Assembly: GCA_027314665.1 (NCBI GenBank)
Contig: DAHVAK010000080.1
Coordinates: 1 to 54,531, forward strand
Length of the DNA: 54,531 bases
Direction of reading: 5' to 3'
Origin: Spirochaetales bacterium
Lineage (GTDB): Bacteria > Spirochaetota > Spirochaetia > DAHUYW01
The position numbers and the translations under genes were made by a program. Shown piece after piece: positions 14,087-22,469 of the stretch. Positions within the stretch are counted from its first letter, which is position 1; every line of letters begins with the position of its first letter. The notes under the pieces are model-generated. The model ran no database searches. It saw nothing but the letters and a program-made list of their open reading frames with translations, and had not been told where the DNA came from.

Positions 14087-14494
14087 ATGGCTTCCGAGCT
14101 TGATGACCCGCGAGGAGGAGCCGACCCACGGTCCCTCGCATACCCGATCGTGCGGAAGCGGGCTGACCCCTTCGTCCACCGCCACAGCGACGGCTGCTGC
14201 TGCTTTGCCGCGACGGCCCCGAGTATGACCGTATCGAGCCGCGGCGCTCGGCGACGATCGAGGAGAAACAGGTGATGTTGTCGAAGCCCGACTTCCCGTG
14301 GGAGCAGCACCTCTTCCAGGTCAACGAGAGGCCTGCCGCCCTCGAGCGTAACGGACGCATCTTCCTTGCCTACCCCGCCGTTTGACGATCCGAACCGCAC
14401 CACACGGGCCCAGGTTCTGCCCTTGAAGCCGCCCCGGAAGCCGGACGAGACCCCCGATTTCGGCACTCCTGCGCCCGACCGGTGCTCCGAATAG
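14087..14494 (+). pseudogene. collapsed remnant of a GH43 arabinofuranosidase-type glycoside hydrolase
   Basis: Frameshifted segments: YPIVRKRADPFVHRHSDG..., EYDRIEPRRSATIEE, QVMLSKPDFPWEQHLFQVNERPAALERNGRIFLAYPA, DDPNRTTRAQVL...DETPDFGTP. Intact TTGCGC-N17-TACAAT promoter (14034-14062) and GAGGAG RBS. Confidence 0.8.
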
Positions 14495-14609
14495 GGAACG
14501 GGCCCCGCGGAGCTCGGATTCTCCGCCAGCTCCGCGTCGCGTGCCCTCGGTTGACGACTGCGGCTGTTGCTGTTGTAATAGTCACAATGGGATGGGGTAG
14601 GGAGGCAGC

Positions 14610-14915
14610 ATGATCGCGAGAGTGATTACCGTACGGGTGAAGAATGAGTCCCTGGAAGAGTTCAAGACCGCAACCATCGCAAATCACACCGGCTCCCTGA
14701 AGGAGCCGGGGATCTATCGTTTTGACGTTCTCCAGAACGATGCCGATCCGCAAGAGTTCGTTCTCTACGAGATCTACGAGTCCGAAGAGGCAACCCTCAC
14801 CCACAAGGAAACCATGCACTACAACAAGTGGAAGCAGAGCATCGAGCCGATGCTGGCCGAGCCGCGCAAATCGACCTCCTTCACGATCATCGCGCCGGCC
14901 CCCGAATACTACTGA
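14610..14915 (+). CDS. antibiotic biosynthesis monooxygenase (ABM/LsrG-like) protein
   Basis: SLKEPGIYRFDVLQ...FVLYEIY...HKETMHY..W; GGAGG RBS. Confidence 0.88.
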   Translation: MIARVITVRVKNESLEEFKTATIANHTGSLKEPGIYRFDVLQNDADPQEFVLYEIYESEEATLTHKETMHYNKWKQSIEPMLAEPRKSTSFTIIAPAPEYY

Positions 14916-14945
14916 GCCCGCCTTTCCGCGTGCTATATTCGGGGT

Positions 14946-15521
14946 GTGATCCCTTCGGACAAAGGCCCCGATGCTCCCGACCGTTCGATCATCGCTTCCG
15001 TGCTTGCGGGAGATCGTGATCGGTTTGGGATCATTGTACGCAGGTACGAGCGCACGGTCCTCAGGCTCGCCTTTGGGTATCTCGGCAATCGGGATGAGGC
15101 AACCGACGCCTCCCAGGAGATCTTCCTCAAGGCGTTCCGATCCCTAGCCTCCTTTCAGCTTGACCGCCCCTTTCTACCCTGGCTCTACAGCCTCGCCCTT
15201 AATACCCTGCGCACCCGCCGCAGCCGAGCCGCGCGAATCGCGCATTCCGAGCGGGAGGTCTCCGACCTGGAAGAGAGCTATGCCGACCCCGCGGAGAGCG
15301 ATCCGCTCGACCTTACGATTCGCTCCGAGCAACTGCGCCTCGTGCGGGATGGAGTCTCGCTCCTTCCCCGACGGCTTCGCGACCCGGTCGTCCTCTACTA
15401 CTTCGCCGGGCTTTCAGTGGAGGAGACCGGGCAGCTGCTCGGGCTTGCATCCCCAAACGTGAAATCGCGGCTCTTTCGCGCTCGACGGCGCCTGAAAGGG
15501 CTCTTCGCCGGGAGGCTGTGA
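14946..15521 (+). CDS. ECF RNA polymerase sigma factor
   Basis: Region 2 (DEATDASQEIFLKAF, FLPWLYSLALN) and region 4 (LYYFAGLSVEETG...NVKSRLFRARRRL). Confidence 0.94.
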   Translation: MIPSDKGPDAPDRSIIASVLAGDRDRFGIIVRRYERTVLRLAFGYLGNRDEATDASQEIFLKAFRSLASFQLDRPFLPWLYSLALNTLRTRRSRAARIAHSEREVSDLEESYADPAESDPLDLTIRSEQLRLVRDGVSLLPRRLRDPVVLYYFAGLSVEETGQLLGLASPNVKSRLFRARRRLKGLFAGRL

Positions 15522-15543
15522 TGGCTGCACACCGAGAAAAACC

Positions 15544-15571
15544 GCAACCGACATTCTCCCGACGTGGTATA
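15544..15571 (+). promoter_or_regulatory. candidate ECF-dependent promoter between the sigma and anti-sigma genes
   Basis: GCAACC-N16-GGTATA: an AAC-type -35 and a GT-containing -10 as in many ECF promoters. Inference only. Confidence 0.4.
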
Positions 15572-15594
15572 CCGGAAGGGAGGAGAAACGGATC

Positions 15595-16221
15595 ATGACC
15601 CCGCAGGGGCTGCGGAAGCTGGTCGCGCGCTGGGAACGAGGGATGCCGCCGAGCGAGGAGGAGCTGCGCCAGCTCCAGCTCCTCGAGGCGGATGATCCGC
15701 CTCTCTACGCGAGAATCTCCCCGCTCCTCCCGCTCATGCGACGAGACGCCGGAGCTGCGATCGAGATAGAGGTTCCGGCGCCCGAACTCGAGGGGCGCGT
15801 GCTCGAGAGACTGCCAAGGCGGTCGGGCTACGAAGAGGAACCGGAAGGAAGGTCGACGTGGGCGCCGCGCTGGCTGCTGCAGGCCGCCGCGGCCGTGGTG
15901 CTCGTCGGGCTGGGCCTCGTCATCGGACTTTCGATTGCCACGCGCTCTCAGGGAGCCCCCAACACGGTGGTCGTGCGCTTCGAGCTTGCGGACCCCCAGG
16001 CGCGCTCGGTCGCCGTCGTCGGGGACTTCAACGACTGGCAGCCCCAGAGTCTGGAGATGCACAAGGTGAAAGGGGTTTGGGAGCTCTCGGTCCCGCTGCG
16101 CCGCGGGGACGTCTATACCTACAACTTTCTCATCGACGGTCGGACCTGGATATCGGACCCCTCCTCCCTTTATCGGATACGGGACGGCTTCGGGGGCGAA
16201 AAGTCGGTCCTCCAGCTGTGA
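15595..16221 (+). CDS. putative single-pass anti-sigma factor with a C-terminal CBM48/AMPK-beta-like glycogen-binding domain
   Basis: Cytoplasmic N-part, one TM (AAAAVVLVGLGLVIGLSIA), then ARSVAVVGDFNDWQP...GVWELSVPL...YTYNFLIDGRTWISDP...DGFGGEKSVL. Confidence 0.85.
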   Translation: MTPQGLRKLVARWERGMPPSEEELRQLQLLEADDPPLYARISPLLPLMRRDAGAAIEIEVPAPELEGRVLERLPRRSGYEEEPEGRSTWAPRWLLQAAAAVVLVGLGLVIGLSIATRSQGAPNTVVVRFELADPQARSVAVVGDFNDWQPQSLEMHKVKGVWELSVPLRRGDVYTYNFLIDGRTWISDPSSLYRIRDGFGGEKSVLQL

Positions 16222-16236
16222 AGAGGAGGCGGCTCG

Positions 16237-16809
16237 ATGCACAGATGGGCGAGACTCATGCCTCGTGAAGGACGCGCACGCGCGCTCGGAATCGCGCTCC
16301 TTTTCTTCTTTTTGGGGTTTGTCTACGTTCCGCCGTCGTGGACGCAAGAGCGCGGCGAGCCGGCACGCGACCGCATTTCGACGCTCGCGCTGCCCGCCCG
16401 CTTCACCGAGCGCTTCGGGTCGGGCTGGGCCGAGGACTTTCGAGAGGCGTTTCTCTCCGCGGGGCGGCAGGACGCCCTCTCCGGTCTCGCCCTGTCCGTT
16501 ACCCTTGGCTCGATTCGCCTTGATCAGCTTCCGGTCGATGCCAAGGCGGCGGCCCTCTTCTGCGTCGAGGTTGCAGGAGTTGCGGACGTCGCGCTGCGAA
16601 GCGGCTATTCCCCGACCCTTCTCGCCGCCGACGTCCGGCAGGTCCTGCGCAAGGGGGGCTCTCCGTCGTTTGGACCGAGCCTGCTCCGAGGCCCCCGATT
16701 GATCGGCGAGCGACCGATCGTTCGAGGCCCCCTCTCCCCGCCCGGCCCGGCGCTGCGCGGAGGCCAGAATAGCGGGATCGGATTCTCCGGAGGCTTCGGA
16801 CCGCGATGA
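16237..16809 (+). CDS. hypothetical exported protein
   Basis: GAGGAGG RBS, N-terminal hydrophobic segment, Gly/Pro-rich tail; ATGA-coupled to the next gene. Confidence 0.65.
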   Translation: MHRWARLMPREGRARALGIALLFFFLGFVYVPPSWTQERGEPARDRISTLALPARFTERFGSGWAEDFREAFLSAGRQDALSGLALSVTLGSIRLDQLPVDAKAAALFCVEVAGVADVALRSGYSPTLLAADVRQVLRKGGSPSFGPSLLRGPRLIGERPIVRGPLSPPGPALRGGQNSGIGFSGGFGPR

Positions 16810-17552
16810 TTGCCCCGCGGTCAGGCCCTCCGTCGGCCTCCTCGTCGGCGCGGCGCATGTGCCTCGTCCTCGTCCTGGTCGGCGTCGGGTTTCAGGCCTT
16901 CGCCGCCCCGAACGACCTTTCGGCCATTCGCACCCTCATCGCGACTGACCCCGCGATGCTTCCCTATCGCGGGGAGGTCGACGCCTTGAGCGCCCCCTTC
17001 TCGCTCCTTGCGGAGCACCAGATCCCGCTCTCGCTCCTCGAGACAGTCCTGCGCGAAGGGGCCTCCAAGGCGGTCTCGGCTTCGGTCCTGAGAAAGGCGC
17101 TCAACGCGGAGGCCGAACGCCTCCTGCAGGCAAAACGGATTCTCGAAGCAAGCGGCGGCGAGGAAGCCGCGCCTGCCTTCGGGCGGCGCTTCGAGGAGCG
17201 GCTCAAGCGGCTTTCGCTTGTCCTGCAGGGCGGGGTCGGTCCCCAGACCATCTCCTCCGTACTCTCCGCCGCCGGCGAGAGCGGTCGCGGTCTCACCTTC
17301 TGCGAGACCCTGCTCGCCATCCTGCAAGTGGGCCCGCTTGACTCGCAAGAGATGACCGAACTGGCAAAGAGCGTCTTCGCAAGCTCCCTCGCCCCCGAGA
17401 GCTATCGCTCCCTTCCCCCCCTCTTCGTGCGGGCGCGGCTTCGTGGGCTCGGGATGGGCGAGACCGCAAACCTCATCGAGCGCCTTCTGTACCGCGGTTT
17501 CGGAGTCATCCAGATCGAAGCCGAGATCCGCAAGCACGCGAGGATGCCATGA
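16806..17552 (+). CDS. hypothetical exported, predicted alpha-helical protein
   Basis: Signal peptide ending AFA; overlapping start/stop with both neighbours. Confidence 0.7.
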   Translation: MIAPRSGPPSASSSARRMCLVLVLVGVGFQAFAAPNDLSAIRTLIATDPAMLPYRGEVDALSAPFSLLAEHQIPLSLLETVLREGASKAVSASVLRKALNAEAERLLQAKRILEASGGEEAAPAFGRRFEERLKRLSLVLQGGVGPQTISSVLSAAGESGRGLTFCETLLAILQVGPLDSQEMTELAKSVFASSLAPESYRSLPPLFVRARLRGLGMGETANLIERLLYRGFGVIQIEAEIRKHARMP

Positions 17553-18688
17553 GAGCACGAGCAATCCCGCCCCTTCTGTTCCTGATCGCTCTCGGAGCGA
17601 TAGTCGCTCCAGCGCTTTCAGCCGACGCATCGGTGAGCCTCGGAGCGACAGGAAGCTACGACATGGGGTCCATCCCGACCGGCGAAAGCCTTCTTCTGTC
17701 CCCGTCAAGCGCCGCTGCCACCGCCCTCTTCAGCGACGTCGCCTACTCCGAGTTTCTCACCAAGAGCGACCGCTCGAGCACCTCGGTCGCATTCGAGGGT
17801 GTGGCCGCCTACGACCCGATAGCGTCCTCCCGGGGGCTTTTTGCGGGAGCGCGGCTAAGCGGGGGGCTCATCGGGGATCTGACCGTTCTCAACGCGAGCC
17901 TCTTCGCAAACATCAACTGGTGGAGCGCCCCCTACGCGCCGGCCTGGACGGTAGACACCCTCCCCGACGCCTACGGCCCCGAGGGCATCGCCCCCTCGCC
18001 CGTCTCCCTTCTCACTCCGACCGGCTCCACGGGGCTGCAGCTCTCCGCCTCGCTCGGAGGCGCCTCCGCGGCGGTCACGGTGACCCCGCGCGTTGCGGCG
18101 CTCCTGGGAACAAGTCCGGGCTGGACTGAGGATGTGACCCTGCGCGGGGACCTCGCGGCCCTGCCTCAGCTGGTGCTTTCCCTCAAGGTGCGGGAGCGAT
18201 TCGAGGGAAGAAGCGACGGAACAACCGCCTGGCAGGCCGGAGGGGGACCTTCGTTCACCTGGTACTCCCCGCACGGGGCCGTGCTCGACGCGGGGCTCTC
18301 CCTTCTCGTGCAGCAGTCGAGCCTCCTCACCGAGCTCGCGACCCTCGGGGCCGGCGGCGCGGCGGGCGCGCTGTCGCTTCCGGCCGACAGCTTCGTCGCC
18401 GTGCAGGCGCTCTTCGATCTCGAGGCGGCGGCGAGCCCTCGCTTGCGCGCCCGCCTCTCCCTCGAGCCGGCGCTCCTCCTCAGGGACTATCCGCACGTTG
18501 AGGCGGGCGTCAGCGGCGGCGCCCCCGAATGGGAGATTGTCGTGCCGCTCGCCGCCGAGATCGTCTTCAACCCCACGGCTCCCCTCTCAGTGCACCTCGT
18601 CCCAAGCTGGAATGCCCACTTCTCCAACAGCGATTACCGCCGGCTGCAATCGGTCGGGGTCTCGTTTTACGCGGCGTGGGGTTTCTAG
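17549..18688 (+). CDS. putative outer-membrane beta-barrel protein
   Basis: Signal peptide (ALSA), alternating hydrophobic beta-strand pattern, C-terminal VGVSFYAAWGF ending in Phe. Confidence 0.6.
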   Translation: MRARAIPPLLFLIALGAIVAPALSADASVSLGATGSYDMGSIPTGESLLLSPSSAAATALFSDVAYSEFLTKSDRSSTSVAFEGVAAYDPIASSRGLFAGARLSGGLIGDLTVLNASLFANINWWSAPYAPAWTVDTLPDAYGPEGIAPSPVSLLTPTGSTGLQLSASLGGASAAVTVTPRVAALLGTSPGWTEDVTLRGDLAALPQLVLSLKVRERFEGRSDGTTAWQAGGGPSFTWYSPHGAVLDAGLSLLVQQSSLLTELATLGAGGAAGALSLPADSFVAVQALFDLEAAASPRLRARLSLEPALLLRDYPHVEAGVSGGAPEWEIVVPLAAEIVFNPTAPLSVHLVPSWNAHFSNSDYRRLQSVGVSFYAAWGF

Positions 18689-18693
18689 CGGCG

Positions 18694-19860
18694 CTATCCG
18701 TGGCGGTGGTGTGCGATGATCTCGTCGTAGCGGGAGATCACCTTGTCGACGACCTGACTCCAACTCACGTAGATGCTCTCCCGCGCCCCCTTGCCGGCGC
18801 GCGCGCGACGGGACGGATCGCCCATGAGCTCGACGAGTCGTCCCGCGAAGCTCGCGAGCTCGTTGTCGCTGAGAAAGCCGTTCTCCCCGTCGACGATGCC
18901 CTCGGCAGCGGAGGAGCCGCGCGCGAGAACCGACGGCAGCCCGAAGGCGGCGGCTTCGCGAACGACCAGAGGGGCGTTGTCGTAGATTGAGGGAAAGAGA
19001 AAGAGATCCGCCCGCGCGTAGAGCCCCTTCAGCTCCTCGCGATTGACCACCTGGCCGAGAAAGATCACGCGATCATCGAGGTCGAGCGAGGTGACGAGCC
19101 GACGCATCTCGCGGTCGGCGTAGCCCGAGCCCACGAAAACCATGCGAAATGCGAGCCCGCGAGTCTTCAGGAGGTTCATTGCCTCGATGATCAGCCGTAC
19201 GTTCTTCTCCCAGCGGTGCTGTCCGATGAAGAGGAACACGAACTCGCCCGAGCCAACACCGATCCTCTCCTGACCGACGGCGCGCAGAGCCTGATACTCC
19301 GCCTCGCTCGGAACCGGCATATCGACCCCGTTGGGAAAGATCTCCATCTCGCCGTCGTAGCCGTACTCCTCGAGCGTCCTCCCGGTTGCCTCGTTGGGCA
19401 CCCAGACGTAGTCAACTGCGTCGTAGTAGCGGAGGATGAAGCTCAACGCGAGGTCCGCCGTCTTTTCGAAGTAGAGGGCCCTGCGCAGGTCATCTCGGTA
19501 TTTGGTGTGGAAGGTCGTGATGATCGGAATCTTGCGCTTGCGGGCGATCTTCAGCGCGATGCTTCCGCTCACGAAGGGACAGTGCGAATGAATGAGATCG
19601 AAGGGAATGCTGTAGACCTTCCGGGTGAAGTTCACGTCGAAGGCGGGAATTCCGGCTCGATAGGGCGCCATCGAGGGGAGCTGGATCGACTTGTAGCGCA
19701 GAATCGGGAAGCTCACCGTATCCACGTAGTCGGGCACCGAGGAGGTGATCACGTATGCCTCGCATCCCCGCTGCGTGAGCCATTCGGCATAGTTGCGGAC
19801 GCAAACCGCAACCCCGTCCATCACCGGCTCGAAGGAATCGTTGAAGAGGCCGACAATCAC
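18694..19860 (-). CDS. GT4 glycosyltransferase (monoglycosyl-diacylglycerol synthase-like)
   Basis: FNDSFEPVMDGVA, DLIHSHCPF, TTFHTKY, EKNV, DLFLFPS...APLVVREAAAFGLP. Confidence 0.9.
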   Translation of the reverse strand: MIVGLFNDSFEPVMDGVAVCVRNYAEWLTQRGCEAYVITSSVPDYVDTVSFPILRYKSIQLPSMAPYRAGIPAFDVNFTRKVYSIPFDLIHSHCPFVSGSIALKIARKRKIPIITTFHTKYRDDLRRALYFEKTADLALSFILRYYDAVDYVWVPNEATGRTLEEYGYDGEMEIFPNGVDMPVPSEAEYQALRAVGQERIGVGSGEFVFLFIGQHRWEKNVRLIIEAMNLLKTRGLAFRMVFVGSGYADREMRRLVTSLDLDDRVIFLGQVVNREELKGLYARADLFLFPSIYDNAPLVVREAAAFGLPSVLARGSSAAEGIVDGENGFLSDNELASFAGRLVELMGDPSRRARAGKGARESIYVSWSQVVDKVISRYDEIIAHHRHG

Positions 19861-19878
19861 AGCCTTTCGCTCCCCCGA

Positions 19879-20940
19879 TCAGGCATGCTCGCCGCTGCCT
19901 TCCGTCTTCACGATGATCTTCGAGAAGAGCCGGGAGGAGAAGATGGCGCCGGTCATGGCCGTCAGGTAGTTGTAGAAGAAGCGCCACAGCACGACTGCGA
20001 TGCCCAAGAGGTAGTAGGGAACGAGCCCGGCAAAGAGCAGGATGAAGAGAGCCTCGCCGAGCCCCGCAGCCCCCGGGGTCGGGAGGACCGGCAGGAGAAA
20101 GAGAAGCAGGGCGCCGATCGCGATGCCCGTCGCGAAGGGCAGATCGACCCCGAGCCCGAGAAAGATCACCCAGAGGGTCACGACCTCGACGCAGTACATG
20201 ATGCCGATCGCGAGGGTTCCAAAGGCGAACGACAGGAAATGCCCTCGGAAATAGGCCTGGAAGCTCTTCTTCGCGAGGTAGGCCTCGTGGATAATCTGGT
20301 GGCGAAGCCGCCCCTTGTTCTTCACGAGCCGAAAGCGTCCAAAGAGGTCGCTGATCGCCGCGATGATCTTGATCATCACCCGCGGCTTCGACAGCCCCAC
20401 GATGATGAGCGCGATGAAGACCACCTGAAGCAGCCCCGTCACGAGAAAGAGGGTGTTCAGGGCGGTCACCTTGGTGATGTGGTTGTGGAAGAAGATGAAG
20501 CCGGCGGCGGCCCCCGCGAGCACCCAACCGGAGATGATGATCAACTTGACCATGACGATCGAGGAGCCCTTTCCCGGGGGCACCCCCTCTCGCTGAAGAT
20601 AGTAGATGACGAAGGGCTGACCGCCGAAGCTGAAGGGGGTTATGAGGTTGAAGAAGATGCGGTAGGCCGCAGCCTTGAATGAGGCGCCGACCTTTAGGTG
20701 GGCGTCCGTGCCTCGGGTGTAGAGGATGAAGCTCACCGCATCCATCGAGAACGCGACCGCCCATATGCCGAAAAGCACGAGCATGTACCCCAGATCGAAG
20801 TTCTTGAGGGCCGTGACCGTCTGCTTGTTCACCGTGAAGAAGAGCACCAGCCCGATGGTGAGCACACTCAAGGCAACGAAGATGATGATTCGCACGACCT
20901 GTGGCGATATTCTGCGCTTCTTTTCGGCATTAGCGTTCAT
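19879..20940 (-). CDS. lysylphosphatidylglycerol-synthase TM (UPF0104, flippase-like) membrane protein
   Basis: FFNLITPFSFGGQP, LPTPGAAGLGE, LWRFFYNYL motifs; start re-called to ATG 20940 with AGGAG RBS. Confidence 0.88.
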   Translation of the reverse strand: MNANAEKKRRISPQVVRIIIFVALSVLTIGLVLFFTVNKQTVTALKNFDLGYMLVLFGIWAVAFSMDAVSFILYTRGTDAHLKVGASFKAAAYRIFFNLITPFSFGGQPFVIYYLQREGVPPGKGSSIVMVKLIIISGWVLAGAAAGFIFFHNHITKVTALNTLFLVTGLLQVVFIALIIVGLSKPRVMIKIIAAISDLFGRFRLVKNKGRLRHQIIHEAYLAKKSFQAYFRGHFLSFAFGTLAIGIMYCVEVVTLWVIFLGLGVDLPFATGIAIGALLLFLLPVLPTPGAAGLGEALFILLFAGLVPYYLLGIAVVLWRFFYNYLTAMTGAIFSSRLFSKIIVKTEGSGEHA

Positions 20941-20966
20941 GGATGCACTCCTCTCCGTGCGCTCCG

Positions 20967-22469
20967 TCAACCGAAGGCGCTGCGAAGGAAGGCAAGATCG
21001 AGCTCCGGGTACACCGGATAGCGATCGAGCAGCCGCGCGACCGCGCTTCTCGCCTCTTCGCGAGTTCTTGGCGAAAGCTGATACTTCGCCTTGCTTGGCT
21101 GCCCCCCCTTCTCTCCCTCGGCAGGGCGGGTGTTCTTAACAACCAGCGCGATGATTCGACCGATCTCACGCATCTCTTCGGCGCCCATCCCGAGGGTCGT
21201 CACCGCGGGGGTGCCGATGCGCAGACCGCTCGTGTACCAGGGTCCGTTGGCATCGAAAGGAAGGGAGTTGCGGTTAAGCGTTACTCCGCACTCGCGAAGA
21301 GCACTTTCGGCCTGTCGTCCGGTGAGCCCCAGCCTCGCCACGTCCACTAGGAAAAGATGGTTGTCCGTGCCGCCCGTCGTCACCGTAAGGCCCTGCTCCT
21401 GACATGCCCCTGAAAGGGCGCGAGCGTTTTCCACGATCCGACGGGCGTAGTCCGCGAAGTCCGGTCGCAGGGCTTCGGTGAGGGCGATAGCCTTGGCGGC
21501 CATGACGTGAGGAAGGGGACCGCCGATCACCATCGGGCATCCCTTGTCGACCGCATCGGCGAACTCCTTCGTGCACAGGACGAGACCGCCGCGCGGGCCC
21601 CGCAAGGTCTTGTGGGTGGTGGTCGTCACGACCTGCGCCCATCGCACCGGATCGGACTCGTCGCGGAAGACTCTTCCCGCCACGAGCCCGGCAAAATGAG
21701 CCATGTCGACCATGAGAACCGCTCCCACGCGGTCGGCGATCTGCCGCATGCGGCGAAAGTCGATCGAGCGCGGATAGGCGCTGTAGCCGGCAAGGAGAAT
21801 CAGGGGCTTCAACTCGAGGGCCTGACGCTCAATCGCGTCATAGTCGAGAAGCATCGTCTTCGGATCGACCCCGTAGGTATGGGCGTCGAACATCTGGGCC
21901 GAAACGTTGTGGCGGTAGCCGTGGGTCAGGTGGCCGCCGGAATAGTAGTCGAGCCCAAGGAGGCGCTGGTTTCCCAGCCGCCCTCTGAGGGTGTTCCACT
22001 GCTCCTGGGTGAGCTTCGCGGGATTGCTTTCGCCCAGCTCTTCGAGACCCGGCGTCTCCACCCTGGTGGAAAGAATCGCCCAGTACGCGATGAGGTTCGC
22101 ATCCGCCCCGCTGTGGGGCTGGACATAGGCGTGCTCGGCGCCAAAGAGCTTGCATGCGGCCTGCGCGGCGAGCGTTTCGACCCTGTCCACGTTGTCGCAT
22201 CCAGCGTAGAACCGGTGCCCGGGATAACCTTCCGAGTACTTGTCGGTGAGAAGGTTCGCCATGGCGGCCTGGCAGGAGAGGCTCGAATAATTCTCGCTTG
22301 CGATGAGCTTGAGGCTGTGCCGTTGGTCATCAAGCTCCTGCACGATCGCAGCGGCGATCTCGGGCGCCACCTCGGCAACCTTGGTGAGATTTGCCAGGTA
22401 GCTCAGAAAGCCTGGATCGGGATCTCCTTTCGCCTGAACGAGATAGTCATGAATCGGGTTAGCGTTCAC
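20967..22469 (-). CDS. glyA: serine hydroxymethyltransferase (long form)
   Basis: LKLIASEN, KYSEGYPGHRFYAGC, VQPHSGADAN, GGHLTHG, TTTTHKTLRGPRGG, GGTDNHL, SGLRIGTPA. Confidence 0.98.
   Translation of the reverse strand: MNANPIHDYLVQAKGDPDPGFLSYLANLTKVAEVAPEIAAAIVQELDDQRHSLKLIASENYSSLSCQAAMANLLTDKYSEGYPGHRFYAGCDNVDRVETLAAQAACKLFGAEHAYVQPHSGADANLIAYWAILSTRVETPGLEELGESNPAKLTQEQWNTLRGRLGNQRLLGLDYYSGGHLTHGYRHNVSAQMFDAHTYGVDPKTMLLDYDAIERQALELKPLILLAGYSAYPRSIDFRRMRQIADRVGAVLMVDMAHFAGLVAGRVFRDESDPVRWAQVVTTTTHKTLRGPRGGLVLCTKEFADAVDKGCPMVIGGPLPHVMAAKAIALTEALRPDFADYARRIVENARALSGACQEQGLTVTTGGTDNHLFLVDVARLGLTGRQAESALRECGVTLNRNSLPFDANGPWYTSGLRIGTPAVTTLGMGAEEMREIGRIIALVVKNTRPAEGEKGGQPSKAKYQLSPRTREEARSAVARLLDRYPVYPELDLAFLRSAFG

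Follow-up and report, generated by a model that had tools for sequence, protein, structure and literature searches.

Sigma factors of extracytoplasmic function (ECF) form a major class of bacterial signalling proteins, and for most of their groups no signal is known. In the E. coli sigmaE-RseA-RseB system (rpoE operon) and the B. subtilis SigW-RsiW system, an ECF sigma factor is paired with a class I anti-sigma factor, and RseB is a largely beta protein; FecIRA-type signalling combines a FecR-domain anti-sigma factor with a 22-strand TonB-dependent transducer. The group ECF278, of Desulfovibrio, Syntrophobacter and Chloracidobacterium, is described as uncharacterised, with a single-pass anti-sigma factor encoded at position +1 that carries a periplasmic AMPK glycogen-recognition site, with predicted promoter elements GTGAC (-35) and GTATA (-10), and with a suggested role in sensing glycogen (Casas-Pastor et al. 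2021, Nucleic Acids Research, PMC7826278). The operon considered here comprises five genes (g1 to g5) in a window of 54,531 nucleotides, the whole stretch of DNA that was analysed, from a Spirochaetales bacterium (contig DAHVAK010000080.1 of assembly GCA_027314665.1). It encodes an ECF sigma factor (g1), a putative anti-sigma factor that bears a CBM48/AMPK-beta-like domain (g2), two exported proteins that fall in no known family (g3 and g4) and a predicted porin-like outer-membrane barrel (g5), and on balance it is probably the spirochaete version of a widespread ECF signalling module of the ECF278 type.

The likeness to ECF278, judged from the group description, consists of an ECF sigma factor with a +1 anti-sigma factor that has a single transmembrane helix and a predicted periplasmic AMPK/CBM48-type domain, as found in g2, and of a -10 GTATA box that is present and conserved here; a partner of the g4 type also adjoins such genes in the Desulfobacterota-type loci sampled. 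In contrast, the -35 box is GCAAC or GAAAC here and GTGAC in ECF278, and ECF278 is described from bacteria other than Spirochaetes and without the conserved partner genes that are seen here as g3, g4 and the barrel. Among the Spirochaetes ECF groups examined in the supplement of the same paper (PMC7826278), none is described with a CBM48/AMPK-type domain, and further groups with this domain may exist. Full-text literature searches (ECF278, anti-sigma with CBM48, AMPK1_CBM) found no experimental study, in keeping with the statement of a first-pass annotation, made from the sequence alone, that no characterised ECF system has this layout; the sigma/anti-sigma part of the layout had nevertheless been noted computationally as ECF278 (PMC7826278). 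Thus, the sigma/anti-sigma pair of the module was already on record, and it is the spirochaete-specific form, with g3 and a dedicated porin added, that is new. The architecture proposed by the first-pass annotation is supported, but the alpha-glucan ligand that it proposed is not.

The order of sigma factor, single-pass anti-sigma factor and periplasmic partner recalls sigmaE-RseA-RseB and SigW-RsiW, as does the probable logic, in which a periplasmic signal would lead to loss of the anti-sigma factor and expression of an envelope regulon; the N-terminal part of the g2 family profile (alignment A4) also matches RsiW weakly (5wuq_C, E 0.051). Unlike those systems, the operon gives no Pfam matches to RseA, RseB or RsiW, its sensor is a CBM48 fold, its g4 protein is modelled as all-alpha where RseB is largely beta, its g2 lacks the zinc motif, and its promoter follows the sigma gene. 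Clostridial SigI/RsgI pairs share an anti-sigma factor with an extracytoplasmic carbohydrate-binding module as sensor (PMC10328401, PMC6582324), but SigI is not of the ECF type, RsgI has its own N-terminal and autoproteolytic domains, the hosts are monoderm, and there is no outer-membrane component; g1 is of the ECF type, and no RsgI-type family is among the Pfam matches of g2 at E <= 0.1. FecI/FecR/FecA systems likewise encode together an ECF sigma factor, a single-pass anti-sigma factor and an outer-membrane barrel for trans-envelope signalling in diderms (PMC11637429), but g5, of 379 residues, is modelled as a 16-strand porin-like barrel with no plug, whereas FecA-type transducers have 22 strands, TonB dependence, a plug and a signalling domain, and no FecR domain was found in g2 by Pfam.

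The five encoded proteins

The five genes are co-oriented, with ATGA overlaps at both the g3/g4 and the g4/g5 junctions, as the first-pass annotation had described them; g2 and g3 are separated by a gap of 15 nucleotides, and a GAGGAGG box precedes g3 (Table 1). Its prediction that g3, g4 and g5 are exported is also supported, in that each begins with a hydrophobic, signal-like segment.

The g1 protein matches Sigma70_r2 (E 3.3e-13) and Sigma70_r4_2 (E 2.3e-12) of Pfam and no other sigma region, and scores 82.5 bits against the NCBIfam sigma70-ECF model TIGR02937 (cutoff 42.9), with no NCBIfam equivalog model at its cutoff. Its possession of regions 2 and 4 alone, its short length and the family model score identify it as an ECF (group 4) sigma factor. 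In the tree of 43 sigma factors it falls within a clade of spirochaete sigma factors from CBM48 operons (support 96/88, 10 rows). Eight open reading frames (ORFs) of its own genome match the sigma profile, the nearest paralogue (G000:C264:36040-36582, minus strand) with E 7.4e-41.

The g2 protein has a single segment with a Kyte-Doolittle 19-residue average above 1.6 (maximum 2.53, at residue 97), between a putative sigma-binding N-terminal region and a CBM48 domain that begins about 10 residues past the membrane helix. Residues 127-189 match Pfam CBM_48 (PF02922; E 2.8e-10, 40.8 bits, cutoff 22.4), and AMPK1_CBM (PF16561) is also matched above its cutoff (28.5 bits, cutoff 26.8). Against the Protein Data Bank (PDB), the g2 family profile matches the CBM48 of GlgB (E 4e-11) and the carbohydrate-binding modules of AMPK beta (E 3e-4 to 1e-3), as well as SIP2 and LSF1. 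Thus, the predicted cytoplasmic region, single membrane helix and CBM48 domain read from g2 in the first-pass annotation are all recovered. Because the sigma-binding end of such proteins is N-terminal and cytoplasmic and there is one membrane helix, the CBM48 domain would be periplasmic, and the topology points to a single-pass anti-sigma factor at +1 whose CBM48 domain faces the periplasm, again as first proposed. The NCBIfam anti-sigma model NF052375 is matched at E 1.3e-6 with a score below its cutoff. An HxxxCxxC motif is present in 8 of 17 g2 homologues (alignment A4); the g2 of the window has neither this motif nor any cysteine. W148, W162, Y174, Y176, F178, D188, P189, D197, F199, G200 and G201 are invariant in the 17 homologues. 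Designer pentatricopeptide proteins, the top PDB matches of residues 140-208, were rejected as relatives of g2, the VYTYNFLIDG stretch resembling their repeat by chance.

The g3 protein has a conserved, helical-looking core (W64, A106, R121 and G123) and a tail rich in glycine and proline (alignment A3, 10 positional equivalents); it has no match in Pfam or NCBIfam, and its top score in an Atlas look-up was 0.77. An AlphaFold2 model of g4 (31 sequences, alignment A6; predicted local distance difference test, pLDDT, 89.5) is all-alpha with 13 helices. No Pfam or NCBIfam model, TPR and Sel1 included, matches g4, and Foldseek of its model against the PDB gave nothing at E <= 0.001; the top results of a full VIA search (Z 8.7 and 8.0) were designed repeat proteins, within the noise of helical repeats. 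In the Atlas, g4 is related to unnamed clusters only, among them one of Spirochaetota (score 0.92) and one of Thermodesulfobacteriota (0.90). On this model g4 is classed as a helical-repeat protein without a known family, and RseB is absent from its listed structural matches. Paralogy of g3 and g4 is not claimed (hhalign probability 7.9% over 27 columns).

The g5 protein was predicted by the first-pass annotation to fold as an outer-membrane barrel, and its AlphaFold2 model (89-sequence alignment A8; pLDDT 88.6, predicted TM-score 0.82) agrees, with 16 long antiparallel strands and no plug. Foldseek gave 331 PDB matches at E <= 0.001, of which the 45 listed are all outer-membrane barrels, CdiB, FadL, AlgE, OccK, PelB (9h80_M), PgaA and chitoporin among them. 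In VIA, OprO/OprP, OmpF/OmpC, ChiP and PorB match at Z 19-20 (root-mean-square deviation 3.6-4.2 A over about 280 residues), and the FhaC, CdiB and PelB barrels come next at about Z 18.4; since these are effectively tied with the 16-strand porins, g5 is called a 16-stranded porin-like barrel and nothing more specific. By prediction it has the hydrophobic N-terminus, the 16 strands and the C-terminal phenylalanine of an outer-membrane porin; it ends in FYAAWGF, and the C-terminal phenylalanine is found in the window and in 5 of 8 aligned sequences. By our own reading of the model, a long loop that joins strands 5 and 6 (residues 126-157) and contains a short helix appears to occupy the place of the constriction loop L3 of general porins. 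No Pfam or NCBIfam family includes g5, but a profile search of 1.84 billion cluster representatives assigns to its family 162 representatives at E <= 0.001 and 95 at E <= 1e-10, mostly of 300-380 residues. Scanning every sequence in the g3, g4 and g5 alignments with Pfam yielded no more than isolated matches, at E of at least 0.012. Convergent on the end of g5 are genes for a GT4 glycosyltransferase and an LPG_synthase_TM membrane protein (18694-20970, minus strand).

Conservation among spirochaetes and in other phyla

A six-frame search for g2 covered 41 genomes (the window's own, G000, a second from its genus, another from its family and 38 more from its class); 24 were matched, the own genome included, most over the CBM48 part only, and 10 (again including the own genome) at E <= 4e-19. 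In nine foreign spirochaete loci (L011 to L019), tblastn detected g1 in 8, g2 in 9, g4 in 6, and g3 and g5 in none. The ORF maps of these loci show an identical order in every case as far as the contigs reach (L016 stops after the g3 position, L019 stops within the g4 position, and L018 starts inside the sigma gene): sigma factor, CBM48 protein, an exported protein of about 180-250 residues, another of about 230-265 residues, and a protein of about 330-400 residues with an aromatic C-terminus. The positional equivalents of g3, g4 and g5 can be aligned (A1, A2 and A3). Profiles built without the window's proteins were run against 8,894 ORFs of its genome of at least 120 residues, and g3 (E 4.6e-7), g4 (E 4.7e-36) and g5 (E 2.7e-12) were each the sole match to the respective profile. 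Because each profile finds only the expected gene, the equivalents are evidently homologous and not merely placed alike, and the co-conservation of the five genes on which the first-pass annotation depended extends to nine other spirochaete genomes of the class.

Three metagenomic contigs (L100 to L102) carry close copies of the operon, with 68-83% identity in g2, 61-64% in g3 and 73-74% in g5; g4 is 64-66% identical over its full length in L100 and L102, and L101 ends 53 residues into it. An upstream ABM-domain gene is kept in L101. The convergent GT4 gene recurs in L100 and L102, with 89% identity, and is not conserved in the nine loci of more distant spirochaetes.

Outside the spirochaetes, a narrow g2 alignment was searched against one genome per species, and the best 80 of at least 600 stretches, at least 512 of them confirmed relatives, were examined; 78 of these 80 loci contain a CBM48 ORF. 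They are mostly from Gemmatimonadota, with others from Latescibacterota, Eisenbacteria, Krumholzibacteriia, Atribacterota and Flavobacteriia. An ECF sigma gene adjoins the CBM48 gene in 23 of the 78, and a gene of the g4 family lies beside 22 of those 23; in the remaining one (L056), the g4 match is in an overlapping ORF and was obtained with a smaller profile. The other 55 loci have no sigma gene, and g4 is found in two of them, where both contigs are cut less than 35 nucleotides upstream, and in none of the other 53, which are mostly stand-alone CBM48 proteins of about 100 residues. Approached from the other side, the g4 profile matches 17 of 151 genomes of a Desulfobacterota-type phylum (one that contains a Desulfobacteraceae metagenome-assembled genome), and in all 12 of the loci reached in this way a CBM48 gene adjoins g4, with a sigma gene seen in 10 and the order sigma/anti-sigma/g4 or sigma/g4/anti-sigma. 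The genomes are interrelated, so that these counts overstate the independence of the co-occurrence, but the pattern holds in five phyla: the sigma factor, the CBM48 anti-sigma factor and g4 form a triad in Spirochaetota, Gemmatimonadota, the Desulfobacterota-type phylum, Atribacterota and Eisenbacteria. Across these phyla the g4 partner is only 14-25% identical.

Additional CBM48 genes accompany the triad in two of these phyla. In Gemmatimonadota a fourth gene encodes an exported protein of about 370-400 residues that ends in a second CBM48-like domain (GDFTDW ... DDFGG); homology of this protein with the g5 family is not claimed (hhalign probability 0.05). Desulfobacterota-type loci include a small CBM48 protein with a lipoprotein-like signal (Table 1).

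Promoter motif and candidate regulon

The ECF-like promoter GCAACC-N16-GGTATA reported between g1 and g2 by the first-pass annotation is present as a conserved, promoter-like element from which g2 to g5 are probably transcribed. When the window is compared with L100/L101, which are identical to each other across this region and so provide a single comparison, both boxes are identical and the 16-nucleotide spacer is largely different. Nine of 10 spirochaete loci have the pattern [C/A]AAC[C/G]-N16-17-(C)GTATA directly before the anti-sigma start, the tenth (L012) having the -35 box only, and L015 and L019 carry a second copy 63 nucleotides upstream of the sigma gene. An anti-sigma gene is likewise preceded by the motif in the locus from Atribacterota and in one Desulfobacterota-type locus; the Gemmatimonadota loci, whose sigma and anti-sigma genes overlap, do not have it. 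In L011, L012, L013 and L016 the -35 box coincides with the codons GAT GCA ACC (Asp-Ala-Thr) that close the sigma gene, but in the window it is intergenic, and therefore the conserved element is the DNA rather than the peptide. In those four loci the promoter element constrains the C-terminal tail of the sigma factor.

The exact motif occurs at four sites in the window's genome and at none in a reversed control. Three of the four sites are 23-43 nucleotides upstream of an envelope-protein gene preceded by a ribosome-binding site: g2 itself and the genes of two exported proteins, P0184 and P0185, before which the copies (GCAACC-N16-18-GTATA) are 31-43 nucleotides upstream. Neither P0184 nor P0185 belongs to a Pfam family, and the genes next to their sites encode no glucan enzymes but an RNase H and an SPFH protein. 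The genome scan that the first-pass annotation had proposed for motifs before genes of glycoside hydrolase families GH13 and GH57 found none behind the four sites, and small exported proteins instead. Desulfobacterota-type homologues of g4 (about 335-380 residues) have glycine-rich tails like those of P0184 and of the window's g3.

In four of five related genomes, a second copy of the motif is situated on the opposite strand, at or just upstream of the sigma start. It points to a divergent gene, which encodes a DUF4382 lipoprotein in G013 (L011) and G024 (L013) and an unnamed exported protein in L012 and L014. L017 (G026) also has a divergent DUF4382 gene, where the box ends in GTATC and is outside the pattern searched. 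No homologue of the divergent DUF4382 genes was found in the window's genome by tblastn. Together these sites suggest a regulon made up of the anti-sigma operon itself and a few envelope proteins.

The promoter of the sigma gene may be of another kind. An extended -10-like element ends 7 nucleotides before the GTG start of g1, and the block GCGTGCTATATTCGGG is kept in the close relative L101, where the sequence just upstream is deleted or diverged; tentatively, the sigma mRNA may be leaderless and transcribed from a housekeeping promoter. A two-hexamer sigma-70 promoter scan of 14300-19000 gave no match.

Table 1. Locations of operon features and of related genes; a location with no locus label is a position in the window
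Feature	Location	Strand	Description
Extended -10-like element	14931-14939	+	TGCTATATT; before the start of g1
g1	14946-15521	+	ECF (group 4) sigma-70 factor, 191 aa
Promoter-like motif, ECF type	15544-15571	+	GCAACC-N16-GGTATA, 23 nt upstream of g2 start
g2	15595-16221	+	Putative single-pass anti-sigma factor with CBM48/AMPK-beta-like domain, 208 aa
g2 N-terminal region	15595-15864	+	Residues 1-90, predicted cytoplasmic, putative sigma-binding anti-sigma domain
g2 transmembrane helix	15865-15951	+	Residues 91-119, Kyte-Doolittle
g2 CBM48 domain	15967-16221	+	Residues ~125-208, CBM48/AMPK-beta-GBD-like, predicted periplasmic
g3	16237-16809	+	Exported protein of no known family, 190 aa
g4	16806-17552	+	Exported protein of no known family, modelled as all-alpha helical-repeat, 248 aa
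g5	17549-18688	+	Predicted 16-stranded porin-like outer-membrane beta-barrel, 379 aa
P0184	L121:1501-2090 (G000:C210:5822 onward)		Motif copy and gene of a 176-aa exported protein, DRDQTQDRDRLQ repeats and Gly-rich tail
P0185	L122:1501-1874 (G000:C281:43097 onward)		Motif copy and gene of a 100-aa exported protein, RDQLQ motifs
DUF4382 lipoprotein gene	L011:2294-3202	-	Divergent from sigma gene
DUF4382 lipoprotein gene	L013:7132-8091	+	Divergent from sigma gene
DUF4382 lipoprotein gene	L017:1965-2843	-	Divergent from sigma gene
Gemmatimonadota fourth gene	L020:6865-7959		Exported protein with C-terminal CBM48-like domain
Gemmatimonadota fourth gene	L021:3028-4158		Exported protein with C-terminal CBM48-like domain
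Gemmatimonadota fourth gene	L047:7087-8280		Exported protein with C-terminal CBM48-like domain
Gemmatimonadota fourth gene	L054:7087-8277		Exported protein with C-terminal CBM48-like domain
Small CBM48 protein, Desulfobacterota-type	L138:8847-9239	-	Lipoprotein-like signal
Small CBM48 protein, Desulfobacterota-type	L139:873-1310	+	Lipoprotein-like signal
Small CBM48 protein, Desulfobacterota-type	L140:7790-8122	-	Lipoprotein-like signal

Proposed mechanism and ligand

By the logic of the family, g2 would keep g1 inactive through its cytoplasmic N-terminal region. It would be an inner-membrane protein whose CBM48-like domain, directly on the periplasmic face, would be the sensor. The strict co-occurrence of the genes suggests that g4 may be the constant periplasmic partner, a co-sensor or modulator, as RseB is for RseA, and the spirochaete module would have acquired g3 as well as g5, a porin-like outer-membrane barrel dedicated to it. 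A signal would inactivate g2, probably via regulated proteolysis, and the freed sigma factor would use the conserved GCAACC-N16-GTATA promoter before g2. The main output would be the anti-sigma factor, g3, g4 and the porin themselves, giving negative feedback along with envelope remodelling, and a few small exported proteins that share the motif elsewhere in the genome would be a further output. Such a module, in at least five sampled phyla, would pair a sensor of carbohydrate-binding fold with the unnamed helical-repeat family of g4, and in spirochaetes would add a porin-like barrel from the equally unnamed family of 162 cluster representatives. The promoter motif is defined, the candidate regulon is small and the domain boundaries are clear, which makes the system directly testable, and identification of its ligand would give functions at one stroke to an entire ECF group and to several families that have none so far.

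Several observations weigh against this reading. In the tree of 43 sigma factors, long-branched paralogues from the window's own genome are interleaved among the CBM48-linked sigma factors of other phyla, and a single cross-phylum clade of the latter is neither shown nor rejected. The g3 and g5 profiles have no match in the non-spirochaete loci examined, and it is through operon membership that g3 and g5 appear to be linked to the signalling. The same-genus genome G001, which is 95% complete, has no g2 match, indicating that the module is dispensable and that its presence varies within the genus; because the g5 profile, moreover, matches 9 of 201 genomes in an even sample of the phylum (5 of them, including the own genome, at E <= 1e-11), the operon is evidently patchy. 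A looser form of the motif has four sites in the window's genome versus three in the reversed control (about 2.3 being predicted from composition), and in five related genomes the counts equal those of the controls; the motif count is thus not significant, and the assignment to a promoter is drawn from position and conservation. The motif lies after the sigma gene, so that the classic positive autoregulation of a sigma factor is not evident in the window.

Among other explanations, one would make the CBM48 domain a pure protein docking domain, binding g4 or other CBM48 copies and no carbohydrate, in an envelope-stress sensor like RseA/RseB. It is rather doubtful, as the surface aromatics that are invariant across phyla would better fit a constant ligand than a partner with 14-25% identity, and both tryptophans of the presumptive sugar site (W148 and W185) are strictly kept in spirochaetes; it would nevertheless account for the strict co-occurrence of g4 with sigma-linked CBM48 genes, for the partial loss of canonical sugar residues outside spirochaetes, for family-wide invariants that extend beyond the sugar site (F145, W148, W162, D188-P189 and D197-x-F199-G200), for the placement of the domain only about 10 residues from the membrane, and for the envelope proteins encoded by the motif-linked genes. 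Another would have g4, as a TPR-like helical repeat, and the g5 barrel form an outer-membrane export route for a polysaccharide that the cell itself makes (like AlgK/AlgE, PelB or PgaA), with the CBM48 domain of g2 sensing the polymer in transit and tuning expression. The top Foldseek matches of g5 do include AlgE, PelB (9h80_M) and PgaA (4y25, TM 0.57 by target length), with PelB at Z 18.4 in VIA, but in VIA the general 16-strand porins, at Z 19-20, rank a little higher than the export barrels, all within 2 Z, and for g4 Pfam gave no match, to TPR, Sel1 or otherwise, and the structure searches no natural protein. The GT4 and LPG_synthase_TM genes converge directly after g5, and the extra CBM48 copies in Gemmatimonadota and Desulfobacterota-type operons would suit a polymeric ligand; however, the GT4 gene, 89% identical in L100 and L102, does not accompany the operon in the nine spirochaete loci that are more distant, and the operon has no synthase or co-polymerase gene. 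An export monitor is accordingly very improbable.

The first-pass annotation had envisaged a trans-envelope sensor in which maltodextrins or glycogen-like glucans enter via g5 and bind the CBM48 domain of g2, freeing the sigma factor and switching on glucan use, with g3 and g4 as helpers. Scores of g2 above the Pfam cutoffs of both CBM_48 and AMPK1_CBM, the matches of its family profile to the CBM48 of GlgB (E 4e-11) and to AMPK beta (E 3e-4), and the resemblance of g5 to sugar and general porins, chitoporin and OprB among them, are consistent with such a sensor, and the authors of ECF278 suggested glycogen sensing for that group in their description of it (PMC7826278). But the operon and its flanks contain no GH13, GH57 or maltodextrin transport gene, no glucan gene follows any of the four motif sites in the own genome, and the motif-linked genes encode small exported proteins and DUF4382 lipoproteins; the barrel was not found with the module in the other phyla examined, and LamB-type maltoporins are not among the listed best matches of g5, which counts weakly. 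The alpha-glucan sensor is therefore unlikely, and alpha-glucan is just one candidate ligand, itself an improbable one. As a spirochaete version of an ECF278-type module, the operon could still respond to some other glycan, or to another constant ligand on the tryptophan pair. In one glycan scheme, a TonB-independent trans-envelope relay, g5 would admit an oligosaccharide, the tryptophan pair of the g2 CBM48 domain together with g4 would capture it, and the sigma factor would be released; this is distinctly unlikely as a whole, but if true the relay would be to diderms what the RsgI sensors are to clostridia, and a cross-phylum ECF family would have its first member with a defined ligand.

The residues of the putative sugar site bear on each of these proposals. 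Glycogen is contacted in AMPK beta1 by W100, K126, W133, L146 and T148, and a W100G/W133A mutant is reported to have lost the response (PMC2642990). By the alignment ranges, an approximate mapping, W148 and W185 of g2 are opposite W100 and W133, the pair that stacks on glycogen, and both are kept in 12 of 12 spirochaete anti-sigma forms, which makes binding of a glycan on this pair plausible in the spirochaete members. Elsewhere W185 is kept in 18 of 21 Gemmatimonadota forms but in only 6 of the 12 Desulfobacterota-type ones, and near K126 the residue is asparagine or glutamine in spirochaetes and alanine or serine in the others, never lysine, both of which argue against an alpha-glucan ligand. 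By our own reading of the alignment, F199 and G201 of g2 replace L146 and T148 of AMPK.

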